A stretch of DNA of 64,000 nt from Bacteroides fragilis. Lineage in GTDB: Bacteria; Bacteroidota; Bacteroidia; Bacteroidales; DTGW01. The DNA lies in NCBI GenBank assembly GCA_945889005.1, contig CAMDBI010000017.1, positions 227 to 64,226 of the forward strand, given 5' to 3'. Made by a program: the position numbers and the translations under genes. The notes below the pieces were generated by a model. It worked only from the letters and a program-made list of their open reading frames with translations, was not told the origin of the DNA and made no database searches. The first letter of the stretch is position 1; every line of letters begins with the position of its first letter. Positions 35,601 to 51,781 of the stretch are shown piece by piece.

Positions 35601-37913
35601 AAGAACTAATCTGGGGTTTATGGTTACACAGTTTTTTACGGTAGTGGTTTCGGTATTGCCAATAATACCGCCAGTTTCTCCATCGTTGGCCTGCACTATT
35701 CCTGTTGAATACGATTCGATAATTTGTGAACCAATAGATGCGCCACATATACCGCCTGCCGAAACCTCCATTGGACTGCGGGTTAAATCTATCAATCCGG
35801 TATTATAGCACTTTTCAATAAGGCTATTTTCTGTCATACGGCCTGCTATACCACCAGCATCGAAACTGCTTTCAACAGTTCCGTGGTTGACCGAATATTG
35901 GATAGTGCTTTCCTGAATAGTACCTGCAATACCTCCGGTTCGGTTGTTACCTAAAATGTTTCCCTTGTTTTGGCAATATTTAATGAAAGAACTTATTGCT
36001 TCCCCAGCAATACCGCCATTATATTGTCCTTCGGCATTTTCAACACTTCCAGTAAAAACACAATTTTGGGCTGTACCATACCATAAACTGGCTGTAATAC
36101 CCCCGGCGGCATTGCCCATGGCAACAACTTTACAGCTGCTGCTGCAATTATAAATACTGCCAGGGTCTAAACCACCTGCAATACCTCCTGCATTATAATC
36201 TATCGCGGTTACTATTCCCGAGCTGTGGCAATTGTATATAACAGCCGATTCGGCATAGCCCGTTATGGCACCAATACCACTAAGACCCCTGATGTTAACA
36301 TTGGTTACCGTTACATTTTTTATGCTGTCGTTTTCGGTTGCCGGTTTGAACATGCCAAACAAACCGGTAAATTCCTCAGTAGGCCTGTCAAATTTCAAAT
36401 TGCTGATAACAAAACCGCCTCCATCGAAACTGCCTGAAAATGGCGCATGATAATTAGGTCCTATGGGATCCCAATTGCTGTATAACTGAAGGTCAATATT
36501 GGCATTAAGCTTGTAATGTGCTGCTAAATCATTGCGTATGGCATTAAAATCTTCAACGGTGTTTATTATATATGGCTTTGCTTTGCTGCCATTGCCTGCA
36601 GCAAAAACTGCAATTTCTTTAACCATGGTATCGGCTTCATAAAATTCGCTGCCTGCAACAATGGCTTTAATAATTGCATTGCCAGTTTTGTGCGCTGTTA
36701 AGCGGTTACCAGAAATTGATGCCACCGAAGGGTCGGACGATTCGTAATGTAAAGCATTTACACCCCCTGCCGCAGTTAAATCAATTGCGCTGCCAACTAA
36801 TGCACTCAAAGGTTGCTTCCACAAAACTTTTTGGAAATGTTTTATTTTTTGTGGGGTGGTTGAAAAAATTTTTAGTATCGGATAGGGCGAAACGCTGCTG
36901 TTTAATGTCCATACATTGGTAAGATCCCAGGCTGCGCTTTCCCAATTCCCGGCAGTTTCGTAAAATGAAAGCTCCGATGCCTGGGCAAGGCTAATGTTTT
37001 GCCCGTTATGATTGTTGTGTTCACCATCGGAAATTTTTTGGTATTGAACCAACATATTGTCCCATGCATAGTTTTTGCCCAGATTATTGGTACTGTTCCT
37101 GCCATCAACAATACGGCCAATATAATTATATTCATTGTACCTCGATGTAATTGAAGTATTAAGCGCTACACAATTTTTAACCGTGCCATAATTTGAAGAA
37201 GCAACTATCCCGCCAAAAACTTCGTACGACATAGAGCTTACCCCGCCTGTTGAATAGCAATATTCTATTGCCGAATAACTGTTGTATTCAACCAACCCGC
37301 CTGTGTAATAATTGTTACGAATATTTCCCCCATCAACATTGGCAGTTGAATAGCAATTTTTTAAAATAGAATTGCTTATCAAAGAACCAATTATACCCCC
37401 TGCGCCCCAATCGCTCCTTACTGAGCCTGTAACAAAGCAGTTTTCAATTACACTGTTTGATGCTTGCCCGATTAAGGCACCAACAGTTTGGTAACCTTTA
37501 ATATTTACATTAACAAGGCCTACGTTTTTAATAGTATCCCGAACTGTGGGTTGAAAACATCCAAATAAACCCGTATAAGCCTGTTCGCGGTTAATAGTGA
37601 GGCTATATATTATTTTTCCGTTACCGTTAAAACTGCCTTTAAACTGGGTGGTCGTATTGCCTATGGGCAACCAACCTTCACTGCCCCAGGCAGTATTTCC
37701 AGCACCGCCTTCGGCTAAATATGAGGACAGGTCAATATCGTTCATCAGCTTAAAGTGGCTGGTGAGGTAATTGCGCACCTCGTTAAGTTGTGCGGGTGTG
37801 GTAATTTGGTAAGGGTTGGCTTTGGTGCCGGTGCCAATGCCAGTGAATTGGGAAAACACATTTATTGTTGCAGACACGGCAACTAGCAATGCGATAGCAA
37901 TTTGCTTTCTCAT
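29637..37913 (-). CDS. Giant secreted cell-surface protein: signal peptide, five GLUG-motif beta-helix/Ig-like modules, two MBG domains, T9SS C-terminal sorting domain
   Basis: 2758 aa. Signal peptide MRKQIAIALLVAVSATINVFSQ. Dozens of GG(I/L)(A/V)G GLUG-type repeats. Big_2-like segments (YTSSNP.VASV.GN.LT). Tandem KAALTATAD.K.K(V/L)(Y/F)G...YTGFVNS MBG units. Tail INIYPNPVKDILNISL...IYNLIIK is typical of T9SS CTDs. Confidence 0.85.
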   Translation of the reverse strand: MRKQIAIALLVAVSATINVFSQFTGIGTGTKANPYQITTPAQLNEVRNYLTSHFKLMNDIDLSSYLAEGGAGNTAWGSEGWLPIGNTTTQFKGSFNGNGKIIYSLTINREQAYTGLFGCFQPTVRDTIKNVGLVNVNIKGYQTVGALIGQASNSVIENCFVTGSVRSDWGAGGIIGSLISNSILKNCYSTANVDGGNIRNNYYTGGLVEYNSYSAIEYCYSTGGVSSMSYEVFGGIVASSNYGTVKNCVALNTSITSRYNEYNYIGRIVDGRNSTNNLGKNYAWDNMLVQYQKISDGEHNNHNGQNISLAQASELSFYETAGNWESAAWDLTNVWTLNSSVSPYPILKIFSTTPQKIKHFQKVLWKQPLSALVGSAIDLTAAGGVNALHYESSDPSVASISGNRLTAHKTGNAIIKAIVAGSEFYEADTMVKEIAVFAAGNGSKAKPYIINTVEDFNAIRNDLAAHYKLNANIDLQLYSNWDPIGPNYHAPFSGSFDGGGFVISNLKFDRPTEEFTGLFGMFKPATENDSIKNVTVTNVNIRGLSGIGAITGYAESAVIYNCHSSGIVTAIDYNAGGIAGGLDPGSIYNCSSSCKVVAMGNAAGGITASLWYGTAQNCVFTGSVENAEGQYNGGIAGEAISSFIKYCQNKGNILGNNRTGGIAGTIQESTIQYSVNHGTVESSFDAGGIAGRMTENSLIEKCYNTGLIDLTRSPMEVSAGGICGASIGSQIIESYSTGIVQANDGETGGIIGNTETTTVKNCVTINPRLVLKNGNDINRITGYVNTATLLNNYALERTYLNSDLVSPGELNGLNGLNATLAQLSSETFYTTPGNWDTQAWDFTDTWVMNSTISPYPVLKGLEADSQKVKHAQWMKRFDENSFWGNIGDTIVFMYHSSPNNIVYSLSQPDRARVNGDTLFILKGGANVFIAALPGGNHYQEFEETYPIMAFSGGKGTKAEPYLISTAEELNHIRNMRDKHFKLIADIDLSVYPNWAPIGSSTSKFTGSFDGNGHTIGNLTIKNPVISDIGLFGHYQPATAQDSIKNLSLTNVNIYAPNADDPNMGSIVGYMHGGRLVNCNASGKMIVSSRSGGLAGYLSSSYAAVLNSWSNIEIHCAGTYIGSIAAVLNDNATVDQCFSYGNIYARSANIIGGIVGFATTGALISNSYSASNIVSVNNNGSKYGGICGEVNAVTIRNCYSTGYIFNNALAGGITSRLNSTTYIENCFAANAALKTVQGYHANRINPSEEDLVGRNNYAWENIYVDNKLTTDGLLNNQKGQNATLAQLKDSAFYKNPANWYSTAWDFANVWTMDTTNVSPFPILKAFSKDIQKIKHTQTISWGQSLEGKPNDTIILSAVGGVNKLTYTSANPAIASVKADSVFILAPGKVEITTTLAGSQFYKADTLVRELVVYEGGTGSKANPYLIGTNEQLEGMHNNLAAHYKLVNNLDLAGYKDWIPVGTSNIPFAGSFDGGGYTISNLVINKPDMQEMGLFGFYHPDTEGDSIKNLTLTNVKINARDYIGAISGYVERGTIYNCHASGSVTGRSHVAGIVGTAYDTNTAIINCTSSCTVKASDYVGGISGYVGYTTIKNCKNQGNISGEYYIGGIVGYAEENTVIQLCASSGTISASDEDAGGIAGYAYKSDLSLSYNTGLVTSPNYTGGIVGYAEDCIIDQCFNTANVSANNSAGGISGYIYDNSEIKNCYSVGEIMVSDSYVGGICGETNNINVLNTYATGKVLNRIDYAGGLNGYFDNSTIKNSFAANAIVAKYGELNRINGESNSSTLSYNYAWNDMVVGDIKIADGTLSNDNGLNTTYAQLGSEAFYTTPGNWDTQAWNFTDVWVMDANVSPYPILKGINTEVQKVKHQQGIAWNQKFDTLEIGDVITLTAVGGAAGSSIVYTSSNPAVASVSGNTLTVHTNGGTSIKAFVEGNTYFAPDSMLKNLVLRSTNGSKEQPHLINTLAELDFVRNDLNAHYKLMADIDMSPIANWEPIGSESQKFNGSFDGNGYTLNNLIINLPFTNHIGLFGYTSNDTLKNIMLKNVNINGYSNVGAVTGYQLSTIIENCTSSGIITGVNEAVGGISGSTSNMAKIRNCNSSAVVTGIFNCGGLVGYATNTHISNSTFTGLVTNVSEGAGGIVAYATLVTIEQCFSLADIDGRWSIGGIAGIASNTNITNCYTSGKIVALEGKAGGIAGVLNPANINYCFSTSIIDGITSQDMGGIYGRNNSGATSVIKNIVAINAGIINNYQSTGRLNGDSPYNANGYAWADMFVNNAKITNGTLTDRNGQNITPAQAKSATFYTTSANWKDAAWNFSTIWEMNPTISPYPVLKTIPASIQKIQHSQVMTNSWSQTLPDNASINDEVMLSAPNEGPSGLLIYTSSNPDVAMIEGNKVLAKGFGSATISVKYPETEFYKASENISKTITITNKAVQSISWSQSLSAVYGDADITLTGLASSGLSISYESNNTSVATINGNTLTIVGAGSATITASHLGNTNYEASNIIQKGIEIAKAALTATADSKSKVYGAVNPDLTVSYTGFVNSENIDVLDSKATASTLATTTSNAGTYDITVSGATDNNYDVSYANGTIIVSKAALTATADDKTKLFGVENPELTITYTGFVNSDTEANIDIKPKANTTANKESQVGTYPISLSGGSDLNYDFNYVNGNLTITPFTNINTELASLINIYPNPVKDILNISLKSNLIDAEYVLFNTQGVVIEQGKLNSQNEIIFNNQTTGIYNLIIKHKEIITEFKVVKK
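30636..37847 (-). repeat. Five tandem protein-coding modules inside the giant gene
   Basis: Module starts mapped by hand at aa 23, 437, 950, 1412 and 1946 (nt 37847, 36605, 35066, 33680, 32078). Each opens with G.G(S/T)K(A/E).P(Y/H).I.T...(L/F)..(V/I/M)(R/H)N.L..H(F/Y)KL...(I/L)D(L/M). Each closes with FY....NW...AW.F..VW.M....SP(Y/F)P(I/V)LK...QK(I/V)(K/Q)H plus an Ig-like domain. Confidence 0.8.
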
Positions 37914-38096: not shown

Positions 38097-41000
38097 ATGA
38101 TAAAGAAAAATCATCAGTATCGAACAAAACTAAATACTGCTTGGAGAGCGATAATAGTTTTAATTGTTTGTATAGGTTTTACAACTTTTGCTAGCTACTA
38201 CACAAAAGTCTATCTTGAAAAGGAAGAAATTATAGAGTTTCAATTGCTTTGTGCCGATATCAAAACTAAAATAAGTACTCGGTTATATGCTCATGCACAG
38301 CTTTTAAGAAGTGGATCTGCTTTTTTTTCTTCTGCCGATAGTGTTTTGCGCGACGATTGGCGAAATTTTTATGAACATGCTCACATTTCGAAAAATTTAC
38401 CGGGTATTCAGGGTTTGGGTTATGTACAAATAATTCCAAAAAATCAATTAAAGACTCATATTCAAAGTGTTCGCGAACAAGGTTTTCCTAACTATGCTGT
38501 TTATCCCGATGGCGATAGAAGTGTCTATTCTTCAGTAGTTTACTTGGAGCCATTTGTTGGTCGTAACCTACGTGCTTTTGGTTACGATATGCTTTCGGAA
38601 CCGGTTCGACGAAAAGCCATGGAAATTGCACGCGATTCAAATATCGCGATGCTTTCTGGAAAGGTTAAACTGGTGCAAGAAACAAACAACGATGTTCAAT
38701 TTGGAACTTTAATGTATGTGCCTGTATATAGGCACAATAGTCTAATCGAGACTGTTGATCAACGCAGGGCTGCTATTGTCGGCTGGGTTTATAGTCCATA
38801 TCGAATGAACGACCTAATGGAAGGTATTTTGGGACGTTGGGATATAATAAAACATGGACGTATACATTTACATGTTTACGACAACAATACTATTTCTACA
38901 GAAGCATTATTGTACGATAGTCAGAGATTCGATTCAATAATTCATAATGATAAATCGGCTTTAATTGTTTCAACTCCTGTTGAATTTAATGGTAAATATT
39001 GGACACTTCTATTTAAAAGCCGATATGAACATAGTCTGTTGTTTCATAGTAAGGTGCTAGTTGTGTTTATAATGGGTTGTGTTATAAGTTTTTTGTTGTT
39101 CTTTTTAACCTTGTCTTTGTTCAATACCAGATTTAGAGCTCAAAAGATTGCAGAACAACTTACTTCTGAAATAAAAGAAAGTGAAGCCAAATCGTCGGCA
39201 ATATTGCATACTTTGCCCGACATGATGTTTATTCAGGATATAAATGGAGTTTATATCGATTTTTTTGTGCCGCAAAATGTTAAAACCTTTGTTCCTCCAA
39301 AGGTTTTTTTGGGTCAAAGAATGGAGAATGTTTTACCGCCAGATGTTGTTGATCGTTTTATTCCTTTATTTAAGAAAGCCATTGAAACAAATCAAACACA
39401 ATTTTTAGAGTATACGCTCGTAATGCCCGATAGAATAAGGTACTACGAAGCTCGAACTATTGCTTTTGAAATCAATAAGGTATTAAGTATTGTTCGCGAT
39501 ATTACCGCTAGAAAAGATGCTGAAGAGCAGCTTGAACAAATTCGAAAAAACTATGAAACATTTTTTAATACGATAGACGATTTTTTGTTTGTACTCGACG
39601 AGCAGGCTAATATTATTCATGTCAACGAAACCGTGAGAAAACGATTGGAATATTCCGATGATGAACTTCGTGGATTGTCGGTACTGATGGTACATCCTGC
39701 AGAACGTAGAGAAGAAGCTGCTCGAATAGTTGGCGAAATGCTCGAAGGGAAAACCGATCATTGTCCGGTTCCATTAATTTCAAAAACTGGAAAAATTATT
39801 CTAGTCGAAACAAGGGTTTCTCTTGGGCAGTGGGATGGTCAACCTGCTCTGTTTGGAGTAACTAAAGATGTTTCGAAACTTAAACTTTCGGAAGAGCGCT
39901 TCTCAAAAGCTTTTAATAATAGTGCAACCATTATGGCAATATCGGTATTTGATACTGGCAAGTTTATTGAGGTCAATCAAATATTTCTCGATACTTTTAA
40001 TCTCAAACGCGATGATGTTATTGGAAAAACTTCCATTGAACTAAATATTTTTTCTAAAGAAAATAGAGATAAAATTAAGAAAGAGAGCTATTCTGGCAAA
40101 AAGATTACAAATCTTGAAGTTGACATTAGGTTTGGAGAGAAACTCATTTATGGTTTATTTTCGGCCGATGTAATATACATTCAAGATACAAAATGTTGGC
40201 TTACAGTAATGCAAAATATTACAGAAAGAAAAAAAGCCGAACAAACAATTAAAGAAGCCTTAAATATGCAAAAATTATTGCTCGACAATATATCTGCAGG
40301 GGTTGTTATTATTGATGCAGATACACATATTGTTGAAAATATAAACGAAGCCGGTTGCGAATTGTTTGGTGACACTTCTGAAAACATTACCGGAAAGAGG
40401 TGTTTCAATTACTTGTGTGTCAATGGCGAGGGGAATTGTCCAATTACAGATAATGATCAGGATATCGAAAATGCAGAACGCGATTTGCTTCAAAAAAACG
40501 GCAACCGATTACCCATATTGAAAACGGTAAAAAGAATCGTAATTAATGAAAAAAATAAACTCATTGAAACTTTTATCGATATTTCGTCGCTTAAAAAAAT
40601 TGAAACCGAGCTTAAACAATTAGCTACACGACTTTCGTTAGCCACAAATGCCGGGGGAGTTGGTATTTGGGATTGGGACATTGTAAATAATAATCTAATT
40701 TGGGACGATCAGATGTATGCTCTTTATGGCATAACTAAAGATACTTTTAGTGGAGCATACGATGCTTGGGTTGCGGGTTTGCACCCCGACGATAAAGTAC
40801 GTGGCGATGATGAAATTCAAATGGCAATAAACGGCGAAAAAGAATTTAATACCGAGTTTAGGGTATTATGGCCCGATAAGTCGATTCATACTATTAGAGC
40901 TTTGGCTATTGTTCAACGCGACGAATCGGGCAATGCCCTTCACATAGTCGGTACAAATTGGGATATCACTACTCAAAAGCAAAATGAACAGGCCCTTATA

Positions 41001-42485
41001 AAATCAAAAATTGAAGCCGACTCGGCCAATAAAGCCAAATCGGAATTTTTGGCAAATATGAGCCACGAAATTCGTACTCCGATGAATGCCATTCTTGGGT
41101 TTAGCGAGGCATTGTATCATAAGCTTGACTCTAAGCAACACCAAAACATGGTGAAATCGATTCTCAATGGCGGAAATCTTCTTATGTCGTTGCTCAACGA
41201 TATTCTCGACCTTTCGAAAATTGAAGCCGGGAAACTCGATATTTCGCCACAACCTGTCGATCTGAATAATTTATTACAAGAAATTATTATGCTTTTTAAA
41301 GAAAAAGCTCAAGTTAAAGGCGTTGATCTTTTTTATAATTTGAGTAGTGGCTTTCCTACAGGTGTTATGCTCGACGAAATTCGTATCAAACAAGTGTTTT
41401 TTAACTTGGTTGGCAATGCTATTAAATTTACGCACAAGGGATATGTCAAGATTCATTTATTTTTCGAATATAATTCTGAAGATAATGGTCAATTGACTAT
41501 AGATGTAGAAGATACTGGTATAGGAATTCCGGAGTCGCAGCAACAAATAATATTTGAATCTTTTAGGCAACAATCGGGTCAGTCGAACCGCGAATATGGT
41601 GGCACTGGTTTAGGTTTGGCGATCTCGAAACGATTGGTCGAAAAAATGAATGGAACTATTTCGGTAGCGAGTAAGGTTGGCGATGGTTCAATTTTTAAAA
41701 TTGTTTTCTCTGAAATGAAAACTACCAACATAGAAACAATAGCAAAGGATGATTTTGAAATAATTCAAAACATTACATTCGAAAAAGCATCGATACTGGT
41801 AGTTGACGATATAGCTACTAATATTGAAGCAATTGAAAACCTATTGTCCGATACAAATATCACAGTATTGTCTGCCGAAAATGGCGATTTGGCCCTGGAA
41901 ATACTAAAAAACAGTAGCCCCGATTTAATAATGCTCGATATGCGTATGCCCGGTAAAGATGGTTATGAAATGGCAAAAATTATTAAAAACAATACTCAAT
42001 ATAATCATATACCAATTATTGCATATACAGCATCGGTTCATAGTAGTTCGAAAATTGACGATTCGGGCAATTTCAATGGGCTTTTATGGAAGCCAGTTAA
42101 ACGAAGTGAGTTGTTCAACCAGCTTTGTAAGTTTTTGAAATATAAAGTTGTAGTCGATGAAGTTGATGATACGGTTTCGAATGAAATCAATTATTTAATA
42201 ACAGATGAAGTGACAATAAGTAAACTGCCTGAAATTGTTAATATTCTTAAAGACAATTATTTAAAAGAATGGGAACTCATAAAAGATTCTTACATATTGT
42301 TCAAAATTGAGGAGTTTGCCAATAAATTGTTGGCAATTGCTCGTGAAAATAAAATAATTGTTCTGATGAACTATTCAAATGAGATTAAAGAAAATTTGGA
42401 AAATCTCAATCTTGATGATTTAAAAAGAACATTATATCAATTTCCTGATATTATTGAGAAACTAAATCGACAAGTAAAAATGTAA
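38097..42485 (+). CDS. Hybrid sensor histidine kinase: TM-CHASE-TM, multiple PAS, HisKA, HATPase_c, REC, C-terminal helical tail
   Basis: 1462 aa. Two TM segments flank a ~280-aa extracytoplasmic CHASE-like region. H-box FLANMSHEIRTPMNAILGF. GTGLGLAISKRLVEKMNG. Receiver ILVVDD...DLIMLDMRMPGKDGYEM. Confidence 0.9.
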   Translation: MIKKNHQYRTKLNTAWRAIIVLIVCIGFTTFASYYTKVYLEKEEIIEFQLLCADIKTKISTRLYAHAQLLRSGSAFFSSADSVLRDDWRNFYEHAHISKNLPGIQGLGYVQIIPKNQLKTHIQSVREQGFPNYAVYPDGDRSVYSSVVYLEPFVGRNLRAFGYDMLSEPVRRKAMEIARDSNIAMLSGKVKLVQETNNDVQFGTLMYVPVYRHNSLIETVDQRRAAIVGWVYSPYRMNDLMEGILGRWDIIKHGRIHLHVYDNNTISTEALLYDSQRFDSIIHNDKSALIVSTPVEFNGKYWTLLFKSRYEHSLLFHSKVLVVFIMGCVISFLLFFLTLSLFNTRFRAQKIAEQLTSEIKESEAKSSAILHTLPDMMFIQDINGVYIDFFVPQNVKTFVPPKVFLGQRMENVLPPDVVDRFIPLFKKAIETNQTQFLEYTLVMPDRIRYYEARTIAFEINKVLSIVRDITARKDAEEQLEQIRKNYETFFNTIDDFLFVLDEQANIIHVNETVRKRLEYSDDELRGLSVLMVHPAERREEAARIVGEMLEGKTDHCPVPLISKTGKIILVETRVSLGQWDGQPALFGVTKDVSKLKLSEERFSKAFNNSATIMAISVFDTGKFIEVNQIFLDTFNLKRDDVIGKTSIELNIFSKENRDKIKKESYSGKKITNLEVDIRFGEKLIYGLFSADVIYIQDTKCWLTVMQNITERKKAEQTIKEALNMQKLLLDNISAGVVIIDADTHIVENINEAGCELFGDTSENITGKRCFNYLCVNGEGNCPITDNDQDIENAERDLLQKNGNRLPILKTVKRIVINEKNKLIETFIDISSLKKIETELKQLATRLSLATNAGGVGIWDWDIVNNNLIWDDQMYALYGITKDTFSGAYDAWVAGLHPDDKVRGDDEIQMAINGEKEFNTEFRVLWPDKSIHTIRALAIVQRDESGNALHIVGTNWDITTQKQNEQALIKSKIEADSANKAKSEFLANMSHEIRTPMNAILGFSEALYHKLDSKQHQNMVKSILNGGNLLMSLLNDILDLSKIEAGKLDISPQPVDLNNLLQEIIMLFKEKAQVKGVDLFYNLSSGFPTGVMLDEIRIKQVFFNLVGNAIKFTHKGYVKIHLFFEYNSEDNGQLTIDVEDTGIGIPESQQQIIFESFRQQSGQSNREYGGTGLGLAISKRLVEKMNGTISVASKVGDGSIFKIVFSEMKTTNIETIAKDDFEIIQNITFEKASILVVDDIATNIEAIENLLSDTNITVLSAENGDLALEILKNSSPDLIMLDMRMPGKDGYEMAKIIKNNTQYNHIPIIAYTASVHSSSKIDDSGNFNGLLWKPVKRSELFNQLCKFLKYKVVVDEVDDTVSNEINYLITDEVTISKLPEIVNILKDNYLKEWELIKDSYILFKIEEFANKLLAIARENKIIVLMNYSNEIKENLENLNLDDLKRTLYQFPDIIEKLNRQVKM

Positions 42486-42490
42486 TAAAA

Positions 42491-43576
42491 ATGGAAAAAT
42501 CAGCATATTTGTTGTTAGTAGACGACAACCGCGAAAACTTAGGAGTGTTAAGTAATATTTTGAAAGAAAAAGGCTATAAAATAGCACTGGCACTCGATGG
42601 GAATGCGGCACTACAGGTGGTAAAATCGATTTCCGTTGATCTTATACTTCTCGATATTATGATGCCCGGAATAGATGGTTATGAGGTTTGTCGACAATTA
42701 AAAGCCAATCCGAAGTATTCAGATATCCCGGTTATTTTTTTAAGTGCGCTAAACGATACTGCCGATATTGTTAAAGCTTTTCAAACAGGTGCTGTCGATT
42801 ACATAACCAAGCCATTTCAGGCCGATGAAGTAAATGTTCGTGTAACTACACATTTAAAACTACGCCAACAAAACATCGAATTGCAAAAAAATAATGCTGA
42901 TAAAGACCGTTTTATATCACTACTAGCACACGATTTGCGAAATCCTTTATCGGCCTTAATTGGTTTTTCAGATTTATTGATAAAAAACATCAATAAATAC
43001 AGTACAGAAGAGATAAAGTCTAAAGTTGAGATTATAAATGACTCGGGCAAATCGGCTCATAACCTACTCGAAGATATATTGATATGGGTAAAGGCTCAAG
43101 TCGGGAGAGTGCCATTTCGACCCGAATTTATTGATTTTTCAAGTATGTGTGACAATGTAATTGAAAAAGTGAAACTTAATGCTCAAACAAAGCATATTAA
43201 CATTAGCTATTTTTTTGATCAGAATATAAAAATATTTGCCGATGCCAATATGTTGGCAACCATTTTGCGCAATTTGCTCACCAATGCCATAAAATTTACT
43301 AATGAAGGTGGTAAAATTCAAATTTATGCCGAATCTTCTGAAAATGAAATTATTATTACTGTATCGGACAATGGGGTAGGTATGGTACCCGAATTGATAG
43401 AAACGATTTTTGATATATCTCAAAATCAATCCAAAGCGGGCACTGCCAAAGAAAAAGGTTCTGGATTGGGGCTGCATCTTTGCAAAGAATTTGTTGAACA
43501 GCATGGAGGGAGAATATGGGTCAATAGCAAAGTAGGTGAAGGGTCGGAATTTAAGTTTTCATTGCCAATTAATTAA
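42491..43576 (+). CDS. Response-regulator receiver fused to a HisKA/HATPase_c histidine kinase
   Basis: 361 aa. REC (LLLVDDN...DLILLDIMMPGIDGYEV...VDYITKPF), H-box FISLLAHDLRNPLSALIGF, GSGLGLHLCKEFVEQHGG. Only 5 nt after the previous gene. Confidence 0.9.
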   Translation: MEKSAYLLLVDDNRENLGVLSNILKEKGYKIALALDGNAALQVVKSISVDLILLDIMMPGIDGYEVCRQLKANPKYSDIPVIFLSALNDTADIVKAFQTGAVDYITKPFQADEVNVRVTTHLKLRQQNIELQKNNADKDRFISLLAHDLRNPLSALIGFSDLLIKNINKYSTEEIKSKVEIINDSGKSAHNLLEDILIWVKAQVGRVPFRPEFIDFSSMCDNVIEKVKLNAQTKHINISYFFDQNIKIFADANMLATILRNLLTNAIKFTNEGGKIQIYAESSENEIIITVSDNGVGMVPELIETIFDISQNQSKAGTAKEKGSGLGLHLCKEFVEQHGGRIWVNSKVGEGSEFKFSLPIN

Positions 43577-43634
43577 AATGTTGTTATTAAATCATTATTT
43601 TATTCAGACTAATGTCAACAATGCATAAGTGGCA

Positions 43635-43659
43635 GTCATTCTGAGCGTAGCGAAGAATC
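43635..43659. repeat. REP-like motif GTCATTCTGAGCGTAGCGAAGAATC
   Basis: Shares the GAGCGTAGC core with sequences at 118-190, 7026-7056, 8190-8220, 8276-8292 and 53741-53818. Confidence 0.6.
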
Positions 43660-43850
43660 TTTTCAAATTTGCCAGACAATGGTGCTTAATAATCTAGTAT
43701 TTTTTTTTGACAAATACTAGTTTTTAGATCAAATTATTTTATAAATCAGTTAATTATAACTTCGTTTTTTCTTTTATTTTATTTCGCTCTTTAGTAAATT
43801 AGTATATGTGTTGGTGAAATATTAAAAAGCACTTTTATATATACGAATGT

Positions 43851-45902
43851 ATGGCAGGAGTTGACTTGACAAGATTTGTAGAAAAGTTTAAAGACGATTC
43901 ACATCTATTATTAAACGAACTTGAAGGTAAGCTTCTTGAACTCGAAAAAGACAGCTCGAATCATGAGCTTATAGAAGCCGTTTTCAGAGTTATGCACACC
44001 CTCAAAGGTGTGGGTGGTATGTTTGGCTACGATGCCATATCGAATTATACGCATTATCTCGAGGGCATTTATGATAAAATACGTAATAAAACCCTAGTTC
44101 TTTCGCACGATATCTTTAACGTTACATTCGATTCGGTTGACCATCTTCGCAATTTATTGGGCGACCAAAATGTTCAGAACCTCCAATTGGCGTCTCGACA
44201 TAAAGAGCTTATTGAAAAAATCGAGAAAGTTTTAAAAAACTCCAATCTAGATGTTGCCAAACCTATGTCGGAAAAAGCAATAGAAATAATAAAACAAAGT
44301 AAAACAGAAGCAACATGGTTTATTTATTTTAAATGCTCCGAAGAGCTTATATTTAGAGGTGTTAATATTGTTTATTTGTTCGAAGATATTGCCAAACTCG
44401 GCAAGTTTTATGTTGAAAAGTTAAATACCATTCAAACAATAGATAGCTCATTTGAAGAAACATGGGGTATATATGTGTTTACCGAAGCCCCATACGAAGA
44501 AATAGAAGATATTTTTATGTTCGTAAGTGAATATGTAAAAATATTGAAAGCCTCAACTATCGATTTGCTTAACCCTCAGTCCGAAACCGATTTGTCAGTC
44601 ACAACTCCAACTGCCGGCAATTCTATATTCGAATTAGCACTTAAACAAGGCGAAATTGCCAATCATAAAGGTAATAATGTAACAGAGATAAATACTGCAG
44701 AAGTTGCAATAAACGATAAACCTGCTTTACAGTCGAATGTAATTTCACGTATTTCGGTAGGTTCCGACAAGCTCGATAAACTAATGTATTTGGTTAGTGA
44801 ATTGTTTACCACCAAGTCTGAATTGCTTATGGCTACCGATGCTCAAAACTGGGAACGAGTAAAAGCTGCTGCCGAAAAAGTCGATAAACTATCGAATCTG
44901 TTTAGAAATAATGCACTTAATATTAGGCTTGTTCCTCTTAAAGATGTTACACAGAAGTTCAAACGCCTCATTCGCGATTTGAGCCAGACTTTAAACAAAA
45001 AAATTGATTTTGATGCTTATGGCGACGAAACAGAGTTAGACAAAAATTTGGTCGATAGCCTTACCGACCCTTTTATGCACATAATTCGCAATTGTATAGA
45101 CCACGGTATAGAAAACTCTGATGTGAGAGTTGCTAATGGTAAGTCAGATACTGGAACCATCAAATTTGTAGCATCACAAACAGGCAATTTTATTAACATT
45201 CAAATAAGCGACGATGGCAAGGGAATAAATACCGATTATATCCGTTCAAAAGCTATTGAAAAGGGCTTTATTCAACACAATGCTCAGCTTACAAAAACAG
45301 AACTGCTCGATCTTATTTTCTTGCCCGGTTTTTCTACAGCCGAAACCCTTAGCCAAGTTTCGGGGCGTGGTGTTGGTATGGATGTCGTAAAACGTGCTAT
45401 AACTAGTTTACGTGGTTCTATACAAATAGACACTGAAACAAATCGAGGTACTACATTCTCTATTAAGCTTCAGCAAACTATTTCAATTATCGATACTTTG
45501 CTTATCAAAACTGGTGAAACATATTTTACTATTCACCTCGAAGAAATTGAATTGTGTGGACTCGAAACTCACAATCATTTGTTCGACAGAGTAAATAGCC
45601 ATTGGCAACTCAACGACGAGCTTATTCCGTTTGTTTATTTGCGCTCTACATTTAAAATAAAAGGTCAATCGCCCGAAATGGAGAGAATTGTTGTTGTAAG
45701 AAAAAATTCAAAACGAATTGCCATTGTTACCGACGAAATTATTGGGCAGCATCAGGCTGTGCTTAAGCCTATTGGCGATTTGGTAAAGAAGCAAGAATGT
45801 ATTTCGGGAGCCAGTATTATTGGCGACGGTCACATAGCACTTATGCTCGACACCGAGAAACTGATGCAGAGCAATAAATTTGTTGTAAATGAATATGTTT
45901 AA
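43851..45902 (+). CDS. cheA: Chemotaxis-type histidine kinase CheA
   Basis: 683 aa. HPt site FRVMHTLKGVGGMFGY, N box PFMHIIRNCIDHGIE, G1 ISDDGKGI, G2 SGRGVGMDVV, C-terminal CheW-like domain. Confidence 0.92.
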   Translation: MAGVDLTRFVEKFKDDSHLLLNELEGKLLELEKDSSNHELIEAVFRVMHTLKGVGGMFGYDAISNYTHYLEGIYDKIRNKTLVLSHDIFNVTFDSVDHLRNLLGDQNVQNLQLASRHKELIEKIEKVLKNSNLDVAKPMSEKAIEIIKQSKTEATWFIYFKCSEELIFRGVNIVYLFEDIAKLGKFYVEKLNTIQTIDSSFEETWGIYVFTEAPYEEIEDIFMFVSEYVKILKASTIDLLNPQSETDLSVTTPTAGNSIFELALKQGEIANHKGNNVTEINTAEVAINDKPALQSNVISRISVGSDKLDKLMYLVSELFTTKSELLMATDAQNWERVKAAAEKVDKLSNLFRNNALNIRLVPLKDVTQKFKRLIRDLSQTLNKKIDFDAYGDETELDKNLVDSLTDPFMHIIRNCIDHGIENSDVRVANGKSDTGTIKFVASQTGNFINIQISDDGKGINTDYIRSKAIEKGFIQHNAQLTKTELLDLIFLPGFSTAETLSQVSGRGVGMDVVKRAITSLRGSIQIDTETNRGTTFSIKLQQTISIIDTLLIKTGETYFTIHLEEIELCGLETHNHLFDRVNSHWQLNDELIPFVYLRSTFKIKGQSPEMERIVVVRKNSKRIAIVTDEIIGQHQAVLKPIGDLVKKQECISGASIIGDGHIALMLDTEKLMQSNKFVVNEYV

Positions 45903-45999
45903 ATTATTGAATATTGACTATTGATTATTGTCAATTGTCTCATATCTCATGTCTCACATCTCATATCTCATATCTTAAAATCTATTATCTAATTATATT
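45903..45999. repeat. Two-part word-repeat spacer between cheA and cheW
   Basis: The first half uses ATTGA/ATTGT words (G present, almost no C). The second half is ATCTCAT/GTCTCAC/ATCTCAT words (C present, almost no G). Confidence 0.75.
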
Positions 46000-46491
46000 A
46001 TGGAACGATTAAAAAACAAACACAAAAACGTATTCTTATCCTTCAAACTAGGAAAAGAATTATTTGCCGTTTCTGTAAAGAAGGTGCTTGAAGTGTTGCA
46101 GCAACAGCACATCACCGAAATTCCCGATATGCCCGAATATATAAAGGGCGTAATTAACTTCAGAGGCGACATTTTGCCCATATTCGATGCTCGACTCAAA
46201 TTCAACTTACATATCAACGAACAAGACGAAAGCCAATCGGTAATCATTGTATTAGACTTAGCATCTGAAAGCAAGAGTATGCGGATAGGTGCTGTAGTCG
46301 ATGGAGTAAAAGATGTCCTGACATTTGACGAAAACGATGTGAAACCGGTACCCGAAATGGGACTCAAATACAATGCCGAGTATATAAGTGGTATGATAAA
46401 GGTGGGCGAAAGCTTTATCATGATACTCGATGTCGATAAGGTATTTACTACCGATGAGGTAAGTATATTAAATACAGCTAATAACGAATAA
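46000..46491 (+). CDS. cheW: Chemotaxis coupling protein CheW
   Basis: 163 aa, single CheW-like domain (FLSFKLGKELFAVSVKKVLEVL...VINFRGDILPIFD). Confidence 0.9.
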   Translation: MERLKNKHKNVFLSFKLGKELFAVSVKKVLEVLQQQHITEIPDMPEYIKGVINFRGDILPIFDARLKFNLHINEQDESQSVIIVLDLASESKSMRIGAVVDGVKDVLTFDENDVKPVPEMGLKYNAEYISGMIKVGESFIMILDVDKVFTTDEVSILNTANNE

Positions 46492-46525
46492 ATAAAGATT
46501 ACAAATAATAAAAAAACACAATATT

Positions 46526-48550
46526 ATGAAATGGTTAAATAGTATGAAAATCCGCACAAAGCTTCTTAGTAGTTTTCTATTAATCGCGGTCTTTACAGGT
46601 ATTATTGGGTATATGGGTATAAGTCGTTTGCATTTGATAGAAGATGCCGATATTGTAATGTATGAGAAAATAACTGTTCCTCTCAGTGATCTTATGGAAA
46701 TGACTACAGCATTTCAACGAATAAGAGTAAATGTTCGTGATGCAATATTTGCAAAAGACTTGAACGAACAGAAAGATAGATTTAATGATATTGATAAATT
46801 AGTTGGATATTTTAATGTAAGTTTTAATCATGTTGAAGTTACTACACTGACAGAAAAGGGCAAAATTGAAGTGAAAAATGTGAAAAAAACTTTTGATGAT
46901 TATTTGACATCAGTACCTAAAATAAAGGATCTTCTTGAGATTGGCAAAAAAGAAGAGGCTTTAGCATTAATGCAAGGAAAGATGAAATCTGACAATTTTT
47001 TGTGTCAAGAAGCATTAGATATTCTTCAAGCTAGTAAGGTAGAGTTGGCAAAACAAACTTCAGCAGATAATAACGTATTAGCAGAAAGTTCAACTTTATT
47101 TTTGCTAATTCTTATTGTTATTGTGGTGATTGTTTCCATTGTTTTAGGATTTGTTATTGCTGGCAATATTCAATCTATTGTAAAATCGGTAATCAACACA
47201 ACCAATTCATTATCTGAGGCTGCCGTTCAAGGTCGCTTATCGACACGCGGCGAACCTGAAAAAATTAATGCTGAGTTTAGAGGTATTGTAGTGGGCATAA
47301 ATAATACGCTCGATGCTGTTATTGGTCCATTGAATGTAGCTGCAGAGTATGTCGACCGTATTTCGAAAGGCGATATACCACCCAAAATAAAGGAAAACTA
47401 CAATGGCGATTTTAACGAAATAAAGAATAACCTAAACATTCTGATAGATGCCATGTTGCAAATTACCGATGCAACCAAGCAAATGTCGGAAGGCAATTTG
47501 GATTTAAAAATAGACATTCGCTCCGAAAAAGATGAACTGTCAAAGGCATTGTCGGAAATGATAAAAGTAAACACACAAATTGTTTCAGACATTAAGCGAA
47601 TAGCAACTGGCGATTTAACTATTCAGTTAAAACCTCGCTCCGATAAAGATGGACTATTGTTGGCTCTGTCGTCGATGGTTACTCAATTGGAAGAAATTGT
47701 TCGTCAGGTCAATATGGCAGCTCAGAATGTTGCCGATGGTAGCTCGGCAATTAGTGCCAGTTCGCAGCAAATGTCGCAAGGAGCCAACGAACAAGCCTCG
47801 TCGGTCGAAGAAGTATCGTCGTCGATAGAAGAAATGAGCTCAATTATTGAGCAAAATACCGACAATGCTCAGCAAACCGAGAAAATATCGCTCAAAGCTG
47901 CTACCGATATTGCCGAGGGCAACAAAGCAGTAGAAGTAACCATTTCGGCTATGAAAGAAATTGCTGAAAAAATTGTAGTGATAACATCTATAGCACAAAA
48001 GACCGATATATTGGCTATCAATGCTGCTATCGAAGCTGCACGTGCAGGTGAGCATGGCGAAGGTTTTGCGGTGGTAGCAGCCGAGGTGCGCAAGTTGGCA
48101 GAACTTAGTCAGGCTGCTGCAAAAGAAATTACTCAAACGGCACAATCGAGTGTTCAAGTAGCTGTAAAATCGGGCGAATTGCTCAAGTCGATCGTACCCG
48201 ATATTCAAAATACTGCAAAATTGGTGCAAGAAATTGCCGCAGCGAGTATGGAGCAGAAATCGGGAACTACCCAGATAAATGGAGCTATTAATCAACTCAA
48301 CACCATTGCTCAGCAAAATGCATCGTCGGCCGAAGAATTGTCGTCGAGTTCCGAACAACTATCGAGTATGGCCGAACAACTGAAAGATGTGATTTCGTAC
48401 TTCAAGACCAACGAAGAAGTAACTACCCTTCGACGCAAACAGATAAAGGAGCCGAGAAAACAATCGACACCAGTTAGTCGTTTGACTGGGGGCGCACATA
48501 TTAAACTTGCCGAAAAGATCGACAACGACGATGCATTTGAAACATATTAA
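46526..48550 (+). CDS. Methyl-accepting chemotaxis protein (two TM segments, helical-bundle sensor, HAMP array, MA domain)
   Basis: 674 aa. Signalling hairpin [34 protein letters not shown] and flanking heptads [18 protein letters not shown]. Confidence 0.92.
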
Positions 48551-48555
48551 GATCT

Positions 48556-49746
48556 ATGGAAGACATTCCTTACATTTTAGTTGTTGACGACAATCCCAAT
48601 AATTTACAAATGGTGAGCGCTATTCTTGCCGAAAAAAAATATAAAATAGCGCTCGCTATGAATGGTATTAGTGCTCTAAAAGTATTGGACGAGATTACAA
48701 TCGATCTAATACTTTTAGACATTATGATGCCCGATATGGATGGATATGAGGTATGTCGTATTGTTAAACAAAATTCAAAAACTAAAGATATACCGGTAAT
48801 ATTTCTTACTGCATTAGACGAAACATCCGATATTATTAAAGCATTTAACAGTGGAGGAGTCGATTATATTACCAAACCTATTCGTGCTCAGGAGTTAATG
48901 GCTCGAATCGAGACCCATTTAACTATTTCGCGACTGCAACACAAATTGATTGAAACCAACGAAAAGCTTGAACAAACAGTTAAGCTTCGGACTTCGCAAT
49001 TAATTGAGATTAATGAAGAGTTGACTAACAAGGTGCAGGAGCTTAAAACCGCCAATGAAATTATAAAATCAAGTATCGTAGAAAGGAAAAATTTGCAGCA
49101 ACAAATGACCTTAGCAACCATACAATCCGAAGAAACCGAGCGAACACGTATCTCGCAGGAGCTTCACGATGGTCTGGGCCCCATTCTTACTACTATAAAA
49201 CTCTATCTGCAATGGCTCAATAAGCCCGATGCACTTAAAAACAAAGCAGAACTTATCGATCAAACTATTGAAATTACCGACGAAGCAATTCAAAGTGTAA
49301 AAGATATTTCTAACAAGCTTAGTCCTAGCGTATTGCTCAAATACGGTTTGCAAACAGCTATTGAGTCTTTTGTCAGCAAAATTAGATCTACTGTAAGTAT
49401 AAAATTTAAAATCGATATCAGATTACGTTCGCGATTAATGCAAAACATCGAGATATTGTTGTACAGGGTAATAATCGAATGTGTAAATAATACCATTAAA
49501 TATGCTGATGCTCATAATGTTAATATTGAGATTATGGACGATAATCAAATACTATTTGTAAACTATTCCGACGATGGACAAGGTTTTGATTTGTATGAAG
49601 TGAAAAAGAATAAGAATGGTCTTGGACTTATAAATATGCAAAACAGGGTTGAAACACTCGATGGCTTTTTGAAAATTGTAAGCTCACCGGGAACAGGTAT
49701 GAAATTGTTTGTTACAATTCCTTCGGCAACATTATATATCGATTGA
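48556..49746 (+). CDS. Receiver domain, coiled coil, then HisKA_3/HATPase_c (NarX/DegS-class) histidine kinase
   Basis: 396 aa. REC (ILVVDDN...DLILLDIMMPDMDGYEV...VDYITKPI), H-box RISQELHDGLGPILT, GLGLINMQNRVETLDG. 5 nt after the MCP stop. Confidence 0.9.
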   Translation: MEDIPYILVVDDNPNNLQMVSAILAEKKYKIALAMNGISALKVLDEITIDLILLDIMMPDMDGYEVCRIVKQNSKTKDIPVIFLTALDETSDIIKAFNSGGVDYITKPIRAQELMARIETHLTISRLQHKLIETNEKLEQTVKLRTSQLIEINEELTNKVQELKTANEIIKSSIVERKNLQQQMTLATIQSEETERTRISQELHDGLGPILTTIKLYLQWLNKPDALKNKAELIDQTIEITDEAIQSVKDISNKLSPSVLLKYGLQTAIESFVSKIRSTVSIKFKIDIRLRSRLMQNIEILLYRVIIECVNNTIKYADAHNVNIEIMDDNQILFVNYSDDGQGFDLYEVKKNKNGLGLINMQNRVETLDGFLKIVSSPGTGMKLFVTIPSATLYID

Positions 49747-49788
49747 ATAGAATGATACAATAATACTATATTAAAAACAAATGACACC

Positions 49789-50445
49789 ATGATTAAGATT
49801 ATTTTAACCGACGATCACAACATATTCAGACAAGGATTAAAATCAATAATAAGCATTGAGAAGTTTGGCGAAGTAGTTGCCGAAGCTGTCAATGGTCAGG
49901 AATTTTTGGATTTGCTTCCAAAACACAATCCCGATTTGGTATTGATGGATATCGATATGCCCGTGATGAATGGAATTGAGGCTATGGCAAAAGCTATAAA
50001 GTTGAAACCGGAGTTGAAAATTTTGTGTCTTACTTCGCATGGAGACGAAGCACACTATTACTCGGCAATTGAAGCCGGTGCCAAGGGTTTTGTTATTAAA
50101 AGTGCAGGTTTGGTTGAATTACAGACTGCAATAAATGAGGTTTCGTCGGGAGGCAATTATATTTCACAAGAACTTCTTAGAAATATAATTTCTAAAGTTA
50201 ATAGCGAAAAAGTTAAATCCGATTCAAATACAGAGAATTTGCAAACAGATCTTACCGAGCAAGAAACAGCTGTTTTATTAAATATCTCGAAAGGTTTGTC
50301 GAACGAAGAAATTTCAAAAGAATTGTCGATGCCAGCATCTCTGGTCGACAGATTTAAAGAAGCATTGTTTGCAAAAACAAATTCAAAAAATTCGGCAGGA
50401 TTAATTATGTATGCCATTAAAAAGAAATTGATAGTGGTCAGGTAA
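49789..50445 (+). CDS. NarL/FixJ-family response regulator (REC plus LuxR-type HTH)
   Basis: 218 aa. DLVLMDIDMPVMNG and C-terminal LTEQETAVLLNISKGLSNEEISKEL. Confidence 0.92.
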   Translation: MIKIILTDDHNIFRQGLKSIISIEKFGEVVAEAVNGQEFLDLLPKHNPDLVLMDIDMPVMNGIEAMAKAIKLKPELKILCLTSHGDEAHYYSAIEAGAKGFVIKSAGLVELQTAINEVSSGGNYISQELLRNIISKVNSEKVKSDSNTENLQTDLTEQETAVLLNISKGLSNEEISKELSMPASLVDRFKEALFAKTNSKNSAGLIMYAIKKKLIVVR

Positions 50446-50466: not shown

Positions 50467-51453
50467 TCATTCTTTTTTAAGTTTTTTGAGTCGTGTTTGA
50501 TAAGCCTGAAAATAATTTCTTTGTGTTGACTCATCTAAAAAAGAAGAAAAGGTTAATTTTTTAACAAAGTTAGACTGATTAAGCATTGTATTAAGTATGT
50601 CGTCATATACTTTTTTATTAATTCCAGCTTTTTCAGAGAGAATTTTAAATTGTGAGAAGACATTACCCTGTGCTAAGCTTTTAGGTAAAAGCCCATCTTC
50701 TAATGCAAAATCTTTGTCCTCTATATGTATCCGACTATTTAACATATCATAAGCAGGACTTAATTTAAAATCGCCCATCGAGGTTTCAATTAATGAAAAA
50801 TTCTTTAAATGAGCATCTCCATTTGAATATAAATAATTGAATATTAGTATTTTAAATAGCTTTGGAGCTTCTAAAGGATATGCAGGGACGAACTTTTTCA
50901 TTATTTCAAATAATTCAAAATAATTTCCAGAATACTTATAGTGCTCTCCATGTGTCTGTGGTGTCCTTCCCGAAAGAGAAGCAAAATCTTCTTGTGCCAA
51001 TTTCGAACCGTCTGCTTTTACATCAAATCTCTTTGTAATATATGCTGGTGAACCATCTCTGAAAAATATTAATGCGTTTTCTGCTGATTCGATGCCATAA
51101 GCTTGCTTTGCTATTTGCATAGTTAAATGTTCATTAGCTGGCATGCACTCAGGTTTTTTTCCTGTACTCGGAATTGGTTTTAGAATATATTCACCTTGCT
51201 CTTCTTCTTTGATGAGTCGTAATTTATTTTTATCAAGTAAGACTGAGAATTTCTCTTGTACACCTGAAATGGATATTCGTTTTCGATTTTCATCAAATAG
51301 ATAATCTGTTTCTGTATTTGAAGTCGGTGAATCGTAAGGCAATATATGATTCACTTTTTTTCCTTTAAATACTTTTGACAGACATGCTCTGCTATAACTT
51401 GTATGACCCTCCGATAATGTTCCAGGACAATATGTTATTTCATTTAAAATCAT
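50467..51453 (-). CDS. HipA-family Ser/Thr kinase toxin, C-terminal (kinase-core) half only (HipT-like)
   Basis: 328 aa. Gly-rich loop RISISGVQEKFS, catalytic NGDAHLKNFSL, and SPAYDMLNS. Confidence 0.8.
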   Translation of the reverse strand: MILNEITYCPGTLSEGHTSYSRACLSKVFKGKKVNHILPYDSPTSNTETDYLFDENRKRISISGVQEKFSVLLDKNKLRLIKEEEQGEYILKPIPSTGKKPECMPANEHLTMQIAKQAYGIESAENALIFFRDGSPAYITKRFDVKADGSKLAQEDFASLSGRTPQTHGEHYKYSGNYFELFEIMKKFVPAYPLEAPKLFKILIFNYLYSNGDAHLKNFSLIETSMGDFKLSPAYDMLNSRIHIEDKDFALEDGLLPKSLAQGNVFSQFKILSEKAGINKKVYDDILNTMLNQSNFVKKLTFSSFLDESTQRNYFQAYQTRLKKLKKE

Positions 51454-51457
51454 ACAA

Positions 51458-51781
51458 TTATTCTGTTTTAATAACTTTTATAGCTCCAATATTATCATTC
51501 TTTGCCGTGGTAAGAAGTATCCCAAACGAATCGTTCAAGTCCAATCTATTTAGCTTACATACTATCTGTTTATTAGATCCTTCCGGAAGCATGTTGTAAA
51601 AAAAAGGAAATAAAAAGGCGGAATGATGTTCTTGTTGAGATTTTGGCAATGTTAAACTAATAGAAGGTTTTGTTTTATCTATAATCCATAAGTTATCGTA
51701 TTTAAAGGTGTATGAACCATTATCATGCTGAGTTAACATGCCTGCTTCTTGGTTTTTATAAAGTATTATTGCTTTCCTCAT
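51458..51781 (-). CDS. HipA N-terminal-subdomain protein encoded separately (HipS-like)
   Basis: 107 aa. GMLTQHDNGSYTFKYD...ISLTLP...FPFFYNMLPEGSNKQIV matches the HipA N-terminal 'couple_hipA' pattern. Ends 4 nt before the kinase start. Confidence 0.75.
   Translation of the reverse strand: MRKAIILYKNQEAGMLTQHDNGSYTFKYDNLWIIDKTKPSISLTLPKSQQEHHSAFLFPFFYNMLPEGSNKQIVCKLNRLDLNDSFGILLTTAKNDNIGAIKVIKTE

Follow-up and report, generated by a model that had tools for sequence, protein, structure and literature searches.

Here we describe a chemosensory gene cluster in a 64,000-nucleotide (nt) stretch of a Bacteroides fragilis assembly (GCA_945889005.1, contig CAMDBI010000017.1), hereafter the window. 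Seven co-directional open reading frames (ORFs) fill positions 38097-50445, exactly the interval singled out by an original prediction, made from the DNA letters, that proposed a CheA-CheW-chemoreceptor core embedded between histidine kinases (HK) with fused receivers (REC) and a NarL-type response regulator (RR). The seven genes and their order are as that prediction had them, and Pfam agrees with every one of its domain calls (Table 1). The core comprises a CheA with its histidine phosphotransfer (HPt) residue, dimerisation, ATP-binding and CheW-like P5 regions, a CheW and a methyl-accepting chemotaxis protein (MCP1). The last two genes form a NarL/LuxR two-component pair, in which HK3 joins a HisKA_3 H-box His to an HATPase domain and RR joins a phospho-accepting Asp to a GerE helix-turn-helix (HTH). 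Every phospho-acceptor is present: H990 and D1281 in HK1, D55 and H147 in HK2, H49 in CheA, D55 and H204 in HK3, and D54 in RR. The HPt His of CheA, called intact beforehand, is invariant in an alignment of 21 homologs.

Table 1. Coordinates and domain content of the seven-gene cluster, the second receptor and the divergent surface protein gene (TM, transmembrane; T9SS, type IX secretion system; aa, amino acids).
Feature	Position	Strand	Domains and size	Basis
HK1	38097-42485	+	CHASE, multiple PAS, HisKA, HATPase_c, REC; 1462 aa	Pfam
HK2	42491-43576	+	REC-HisKA-HATPase_c	Pfam
CheA	43851-45902	+	Hpt, H-kinase_dim, HATPase_c, CheW-like; C-terminal REC absent	Pfam
CheW	46000-46491	+	CheW coupling protein	Pfam CheW, E = 1.5e-32
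MCP1	46526-48550	+	4HB_MCP, HAMP_2, HAMP, MCPsignal	Pfam; MCPsignal E = 3e-29
HK3	48556-49746	+	REC-HisKA_3-HATPase_c	Pfam; HisKA_3 E = 7e-10
RR	49789-50445	+	REC-GerE; NarL-family DNA-binding regulator, presumed output	Pfam; GerE E = 3.5e-7, above Pfam cutoff
MCP2	53914-55035	+	multi-TM, HAMP, MCPsignal; 373 aa, C-terminal tail absent	Pfam
Giant T9SS protein	29637-37913	-	GLUG repeats, MBG_2 domains, M26-like region, T9SS C-terminal sorting domain; 2758 aa	

From HK1 to RR, the intergenic gaps measure 5, 274, 97, 34, 5 and 42 nt. The gaps of 5, 5 and 42 nt had been given correctly, a fourth listed as 35 nt is 34, and two had gone unmentioned, the 274-nt gap between HK2 and cheA and the 97-nt gap between cheA and cheW. 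The cheA-cheW spacer (45903-45999) consists mostly of 7-nt tandem repeats (TATTGAA x3.7 and TCTCATA x5.4). Counts from a scan for sigma-70 promoters and terminators equalled the shuffled expectation and were uninformative, and the Bacteroidetes -7 motif TAnnTTTG occurs in none of the intergenic gaps.

Chance does not account for the cluster: its components also lie together in independent genomes. At E < 1e-20 the window CheA has ~1,900 relatives in the database, of which those with names are Bacteroidales metagenome-assembled genomes; Bacteroidales and Marinilabiliales assemblies contain many relatives of this type. Scanning genome contigs with a CheA alignment (generic CheA motifs) recovered at least about a dozen Bacteroidota loci, and scanning metagenome contigs with the window CheA as single query yielded only L090, which duplicates the P0003 type. 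A neighbour-joining (NJ) tree built from 86 CheAs places the Bacteroidota sequences in a single clade, itself divided into two subclades. Clusters of subclade i read CheY-CheA-CheW-(MCP)-CheR-small HK-CheB (L003-L006, L008, L013, L017). Subclade ii, which includes the window CheA, lacks CheB and, except in L019 and L095, in-cluster CheY; L095 departs from this rule with two stand-alone receivers. As a separate observation, Bacteroidota clusters with CheY, CheR and CheB (L003, L004, L005, L006, L013, L017, L044) carry a sensor-less HisKA/HATPase protein of ~300 aa between cheR and cheB (for example, L005:13493-14470), which is unusual inside a che operon.

Conservation of the neighbourhood in relatives had been set beforehand as a test of the prediction, and it was found. 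The same seven genes occur in the same order in L083/L090, whose CheA is 65% identical to that of the window. All seven components are also present in the cultured Plebeiibacterium marinum D04 (Marinilabiliaceae; L014, CheA 42% identical), rearranged into divergent operons, with cheW-mcp-cheA on one side and genes for REC-HisKA_3, REC-GerE, a PAS hybrid kinase and REC-HisKA on the other. Its sensor domains differ from those of the window, with CZB on the MCP and PAS replacing CHASE on HK1. Three loci (L084, L086, L092; CheA 52-57%) are organised as CheA-CheW-MCP-[PAS-HisKA_3 kinase]-[stand-alone NarL-like REC]-[REC-GerE], L093 (50%) has CheA-CheW-MCP-[REC-GerE] only, and L088 (47%) reads [REC-GerE]-CheA-MCP-CheW-CheR. 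No clear REC-GerE regulator was found within reach in L091, L089 and L087 (CheA 44-60%), and the sole GerE protein of L089 is receiver-less. Overall, RR orthologs adjoin CheA in about ten loci (L092, L088, L093, L094, L014, L003, L095, L083, L084, L086), with full-length identities of 42-54% and receiver identities of 55-68%.

HK3 orthologs likewise adjoin che clusters, in L083/L090, L094, L095 and L014. Homologs were collected by searching from HK3 itself, and two were looked up blind to their CheA context; both (2/2, L094 and L095) adjoin CheA-CheW-MCP clusters. By a rough, general-knowledge estimate of about one cheA per 4-5 Mb of Bacteroidota genome, a random 20-kb locus holds cheA in less than about 1% of cases. 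The linkage of HK3 to che genes is thus not attributable to chance. In L094, REC-HisKA_3 and REC-GerE genes are divergent from CheA-CheW-CheR(201 aa)-MBL-MCP-MCP (MBL, metallo-beta-lactamase), HK1 and HK2 are absent, and the locus holds no further kinase except in an unrelated AraC-type hybrid system at a distance of about 4 kb. L095 combines a large PAS-HisKA kinase, REC-PAS-HisKA_3, REC-GerE, two stand-alone receivers and CheA-CheW-MCP. Pairs of REC-(PAS)-HisKA_3 and REC-GerE also lie beside che clusters in Rikenella (L003) and Betaproteobacteria (L043), and L080 (Betaproteobacteria) has the kinase without the regulator; the Che-NarL linkage may therefore be wider than Bacteroidota. Among proteobacterial loci (L024, L028, L040, L043, L066), we also noted a HisKA_3 kinase and REC-GerE directly upstream of che clusters of the form MCP(~400 aa)-CheY-CheA-...-CheR-CheB; L028 has the regulator only, and the L043 kinase has an N-terminal receiver.

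We consider it highly probable that the locus encodes a chemosensory core with a conserved NarL-type two-component partner and a transcriptional output. The conserved linkage to a DNA-binding regulator suggests an output other than motility.

The AlphaFold2 (AF2) model of CheA gives a plain P1-P5 domain map with no fused receiver. Residues 154-235 (44310-44555) fold as a conserved P2-like beta-alpha-beta-beta-alpha-beta domain; the likeness to P2 comes from alignment and AF2 topology, and Pfam returned no significant family for residues 101-300. In the aligned CheAs, the first helix of this domain reads R[GA][VI]N[IL]..[FI].D[LI] in the CheY-less subclade and G.NPL.L..[ED]L in the CheY-containing Bacteroidota subclade and proteobacterial relatives. 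Such a difference between subclades would fit a switch to another docking partner.

HK3 has no sensor domain: the receiver is its sole input domain, and its gene begins 5 nt after the mcp stop codon. D11, D12, D55 and H204 are invariant in the alignment. In the AF2 model (mean confidence score, pLDDT, 86.6), one unbroken helix runs from alpha-5 of the receiver (residue 111) through the H-box at H204 to residue 221, the geometry expected if phosphorylation of the receiver were to gate the kinase. HK2, encoded 5 nt after HK1, also lacks a sensor domain and is present in L083/L090 and P. marinum. Its receiver and that of HK3 are paralogs with 60% identity, and the duplication is older than the split between the window and L083. 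When a Bacteroidota CheY (L005) was compared with the window receivers by tblastn, it matched HK3 best (74 bits), followed by HK2 (70), HK1 (63) and RR (52). The stand-alone receivers of L084 and L086 were considered as an unfused, "Rosetta-stone" version of the HK3 receiver and were rejected, being NarL-like and only 24-31% identical to it.

HK1 is a membrane CHASE sensor hybrid kinase with orthologous hybrid kinases in L083/L090, L014 and L095. Its receiver is followed by a helical tail of about 115-120 aa that contains no His (residues ~1342-1462; 42120-42485) and is conserved in the L090, L014 and L095 orthologs. Pfam returned no significant family for this tail, which is possibly a degenerate HPt-like domain.

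MCP1 has a 4HB sensor and two TM helices. Aligned across the hairpin tip with the 36-heptad (36H) receptor Tsr, it lacks a stretch of 7 residues in each arm, placed symmetrically around the hairpin; with one heptad fewer per arm, it belongs to the 34H class. A second receptor, MCP2, lies 3.5 kb downstream of the cluster and had not been mentioned previously. It aligns with MCP1 over 240 residues without a gap (47% identity), which places it in the 34H class as well; its C-arm methylation pairs are partly lost. MCP2 is probably an additional receptor for the same array.

The original prediction described the core as lacking adaptation enzymes. This is true of the window, which encodes neither CheR nor CheB, and incomplete with respect to the receptor and to the relatives. 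MCP1 retains EE or EQ pairs at all five Tsr methylation positions and, after a linker of ~45 residues, ends in ...DNDDAFETY, a tether-like tail resembling NWETF. An acidic [FY]xx[FY]-COOH tail is shared by 15 of 18 subclade-ii receptors and by 7 of 9 in subclade i. In relatives, cheR is found in the cluster in L088 and L094. Judging from these sequence features, MCP1 looks like a substrate for adaptation enzymes although the cluster has no adaptation genes. Pentapeptide tethers for CheR and CheB are reported to be abundant in Bacteroidetes (PMC7390727), and two-TM 34H receptors with a pentapeptide have been assigned to F8 systems (PMC11253619, PMC7184735).

Two further observations concern the receptors and their modification. 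The MCP tails of Bacteroidota clusters carry a second motif, G[VI]x[LI]x[LM], about 15-20 residues before the acidic [FY]xx[FY]-COOH end (for example, GAHIKL, RGVSLNM, KGINIRL); we saw it in the window (48400-48550), L083, L084, L086, L088, L089, L092, L093, L003, L004, L008 and L017. In L088 (14664-15909) and L094 (5967-7205), a short CheR of 201 aa with the methyltransferase domain only is followed by an MBL-fold protein of ~195 aa. This arrangement raises the question of whether the MBL-fold protein replaces the methylesterase in che clusters without CheB.

We searched the 64-kb window for missing che components with jackhmmer on all ORFs of at least 70 aa, tblastn with Bacteroidota CheY, CheR, CheB and MBL queries, and Pfam on ORFs of at least 150 aa and on a handful of shorter ORFs. 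Neither a stand-alone receiver nor a CheR or CheB methylesterase was detected in the window, and it holds no flagellar or gliding gene, as had been stated for CheY, CheB, CheR and flagellar genes. Its receivers are limited to those fused in HK1, HK2, HK3 and RR, four in all.

How might the core reach the regulator? In the route that we tentatively prefer, MCP1 and probably MCP2 would assemble with CheW and CheA into an array that controls how far CheA phosphorylates itself at H49. CheA, without a dedicated single-domain CheY in the cluster, would pass the phosphoryl group to D55 of the HK3 receiver. Phosphorylation of this receiver would travel along the helix spanning residues 111-221 to the dimerisation helix at H204 and shift HK3 between kinase and phosphatase states. 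HK3 would then set the phosphorylation of RR at D54 and thereby change transcription of its targets. HK1 and HK2 could form a second sensory branch converging on the same node, the HK2 receiver being a close paralog of that of HK3. We infer every phosphotransfer step in this scheme, as well as its sign and the targets of RR.

The relay from CheA through the HK3 receiver and HK3 to RR is favoured because of the L094 arrangement, the CheY-likeness of the HK3 receiver, the architecture of HK3 and the 5-nt junction between mcp and HK3. In L094, the REC-HisKA_3/RR pair has, apart from the AraC-type hybrid system, no candidate donor kinase in its vicinity except CheA. A HisKA_3 kinase also lies between MCP and RR in L084, L086 and L092. 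We regard this relay as the best single model, with a probability just short of even. A stronger form of it, in which the CheY-less Bacteroidota subclade uses an HK3-type receiver as the obligate CheA substrate, so that the array would serve as the "sensor domain" of a NarL two-component system into which HK1 and HK2 are plugged through a duplicated receiver, is possible, but we are doubtful of it.

Several points weigh against the relay. L093 and L088 have an RR ortholog and no HisKA_3 kinase nearby, which favours direct transfer from CheA to RR in those loci; there the RR ortholog is probably a direct CheA substrate, and the RR of the window may be one too. The receiver-fused HK3 often occurs with a large upstream HisKA kinase (window, L083/L090, L014, L095, L043), so that the HK2 and HK3 receivers could be served by HK1. 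The HisKA_3 kinase of L084, L086 and L092 has PAS domains and no receiver. The absence of CheY applies to the 64-kb window, and an unlinked CheY is possible elsewhere in the genome. The NJ method and the small number of loci also limit inference. The proposal of a pathway from CheA through a REC-kinase to the regulator therefore stands as plausible, given L094 and the best CheY matches to HK3 and HK2, and falls short in that L093 and L088 show that this route is not unique.

In the leading alternative, CheA would phosphorylate RR directly or destabilise RR~P, as in the Myxococcus xanthus Che3/CrdA system, with HK3 acting as a parallel kinase/phosphatase input whose receiver is served by HK1 or HK2 or is a phosphate sink. 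We think this improbable on balance, yet worth serious weight: no other neighbour of this CheA clade is conserved as consistently as RR, L093 and L088 have an RR ortholog but lack a HisKA_3 kinase, the receiver-fused HK3 co-occurs with HK1-like kinases, and CrdS/CrdA plus CheA3 provide a precedent (PMC3147164). On the other side, the RR receiver is the least CheY-like of the window's four, L094 has REC-HisKA_3 and RR beside CheA with neither HK1 nor HK2, and HK3, with its receiver as only input domain, is encoded 5 nt after the mcp stop codon. Absence of HK1 and HK2 from L094 also speaks against a division into two separate circuits, one running from HK1 through the HK2/HK3 receivers to RR and the other from CheA to an unlinked CheY that might serve, for example, surface motility; the HK1 cascade may then simply regulate che or neighbouring genes. 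In P. marinum, HK3, RR, HK1 and HK2 indeed form one operon divergent from cheW-mcp-cheA, the 274 nt ahead of cheA leave room for separate transcription in the window, and a big HisKA kinase upstream usually accompanies the receiver-fused HK3. The adaptation features of MCP1 imply further che genes elsewhere, and sister Bacteroidota clusters have cheY, cheR and cheB. However, RR and a HisKA_3 kinase lie inside the che operon, downstream of mcp, in the window, L083, L084, L086 and L092, and this CheA subclade is consistently without in-cluster cheY (exceptions L095 and L019). We judge two circuits to be unlikely.

It is very unlikely that the locus is an ordinary accessory chemotaxis module of F8-like type, with CheY, CheR and CheB at a second locus and coincidental two-component neighbours. 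The plain five-domain CheA would suit such a module, as would the two-TM 34H pentapeptide receptors assigned to F8 (PMC11253619, PMC7184735). Coincidence is at odds with the conservation of RR and a HisKA_3 kinase with this CheA clade across many genomes. It also conflicts with the outcome of the context-blind HK3 look-ups, both in che clusters where our rough, general-knowledge estimate would expect fewer than ~1%.

The gene upstream of the cluster encodes a giant T9SS protein and is divergent from HK1 across an AT-rich spacer of 183 nt. The sorting domain of this protein marks the contig, a metagenome contig of 180-193 kb to which the window belongs, as Bacteroidota. The gene had been put forward as an adhesin and a candidate target of the regulator, which is a guess. 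Large surface proteins lie upstream of the che locus in only 3 of ~12 loci (window, P0003 contig, L087), an incidence that does not point to regulation; this neighbour is not conserved, and we rejected it as a conserved target. On the 3' side are a hipA-like toxin module, a CCA/poly(A) polymerase gene and MCP2. The module (50467-51992, minus strand) is a toxin-antitoxin-like trio of a HipA C-terminal gene, a HipA N-terminal gene and a small HTH gene, inserted between RR and the polymerase and MCP2 genes. The DNA after the RR ortholog is different in every relative. Elsewhere the window carries housekeeping genes (ilv, tuf-nusG-rplA-rplJ-rpoB-rpoC, purB and others).

Our literature search found no description of a Che-to-NarL system or of a characterised Bacteroidota Che pathway, and to our knowledge no Bacteroidota chemosensory system has been functionally characterised. 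If the relay is true, abundant gut and sediment organisms drive gene expression through chemoreceptor arrays and a NarL-type regulator, and the gain of the array, and probably its adaptation, would act on gene expression. The logic of CheA acting on a REC-kinase, shown once, in Rhodospirillum centenum, would extend to another phylum and another kinase family. Should the HK3-type receiver be the obligate substrate, this would be the first defined Che function in non-flagellated Bacteroidota and a general kinase-to-kinase design. The presence of the module in the cultured P. marinum D04 makes the question directly testable. The interest of the system lies mainly in its conservation, in the uncharacterised status of Bacteroidota pathways and in this testability in a cultured species.

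Chemosensory cores are routed to non-motor outputs in several known systems. Wsp of Pseudomonas aeruginosa and other alternative cellular function (ACF) pathways direct a chemoreceptor/CheA core to a non-motor receiver effector, as is proposed for the window. Unlike the window, Wsp has a REC-GGDEF cyclase as output, a CheA-REC hybrid (WspE), a 40H receptor, and CheR and CheB homologs in the cluster. The architecture of the window had been described as not characterised, but there are precedents for its main elements in the Che3 systems of R. centenum (CheA3 -> CheS3 -> CheY3) and M. xanthus (CrdS/CrdA). The CheS3 kinase of R. centenum has a REC-REC-PAS-HK architecture. In this organism, CheA3 phosphorylates REC1 of CheS3 and thereby stops CheS3 from phosphorylating CheY3 (He, Marden, Quardokus & Bauer 2013; PMC3868531). 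Both clusters encode a receiver-fused histidine kinase, here HK3, 5 nt after mcp, and HK2, 274 nt before cheA. In that account, CheA gates a second kinase and then a response regulator, the relay proposed here, and the output is not motility. The differences are that CheS3, with its REC1 and HK domains, is not a REC-HisKA_3 kinase; CheY3 is a single-domain protein whereas RR is DNA-binding; CheA3 has its own receiver as phosphate sink whereas the window CheA has none; and the host is an alphaproteobacterium. The genes cheB3 and cheR3 belong to the Che3 cascade (PMC4436063).

The Che3 system of M. xanthus has no CheY, and its output is the DNA-binding CrdA with its own kinase CrdS, CheA3 also acting on CrdA~P (Willett & Kirby 2011; PMC3147164). 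It shares with the window MCPs, CheA and CheW, the lack of CheY, a DNA-binding regulator encoded with its own classical kinase beside che, and a convergence, here proposed, of chemosensory and two-component inputs on one regulator. It differs in that CrdA is of the NtrC family and CrdS is NtrB-like (HisKA), whereas the window has NarL/LuxR and HisKA_3 proteins; CrdS is without an N-terminal receiver; CheB and CheR are encoded in the cluster; CheA3 seems to dephosphorylate CrdA~P; and the host is a deltaproteobacterium. In heptad count, TM helices, receptor tail and CheA architecture, on which the likeness rests, the window also resembles the F8 class (Pseudomonas syringae, gammaproteobacteria; PMC11253619, PMC7184735), with a two-TM 34H receptor carrying a pentapeptide (here AFETY) and a plain P1-P5 CheA. 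Unlike F8 systems, it has no in-cluster CheY, CheR or CheB, and Bacteroidota CheAs form their own clade in the NJ tree; the nearest CheA relatives outside Bacteroidota include alphaproteobacterial CheY-CheA-CheW-MCP-CheW-CheR-CheB loci.

The module is of an already known kind, the ACF-like Che pathways with transcriptional or kinase-relay output, and combines features of the R. centenum and M. xanthus Che3 systems. New relative to both precedents are the absence of in-cluster cheR and cheB, the receiver-less CheA, the HisKA_3 kinase with a single N-terminal receiver, the NarL/LuxR regulator, the added CHASE-hybrid and REC-HisKA branch, and the occurrence in another phylum.

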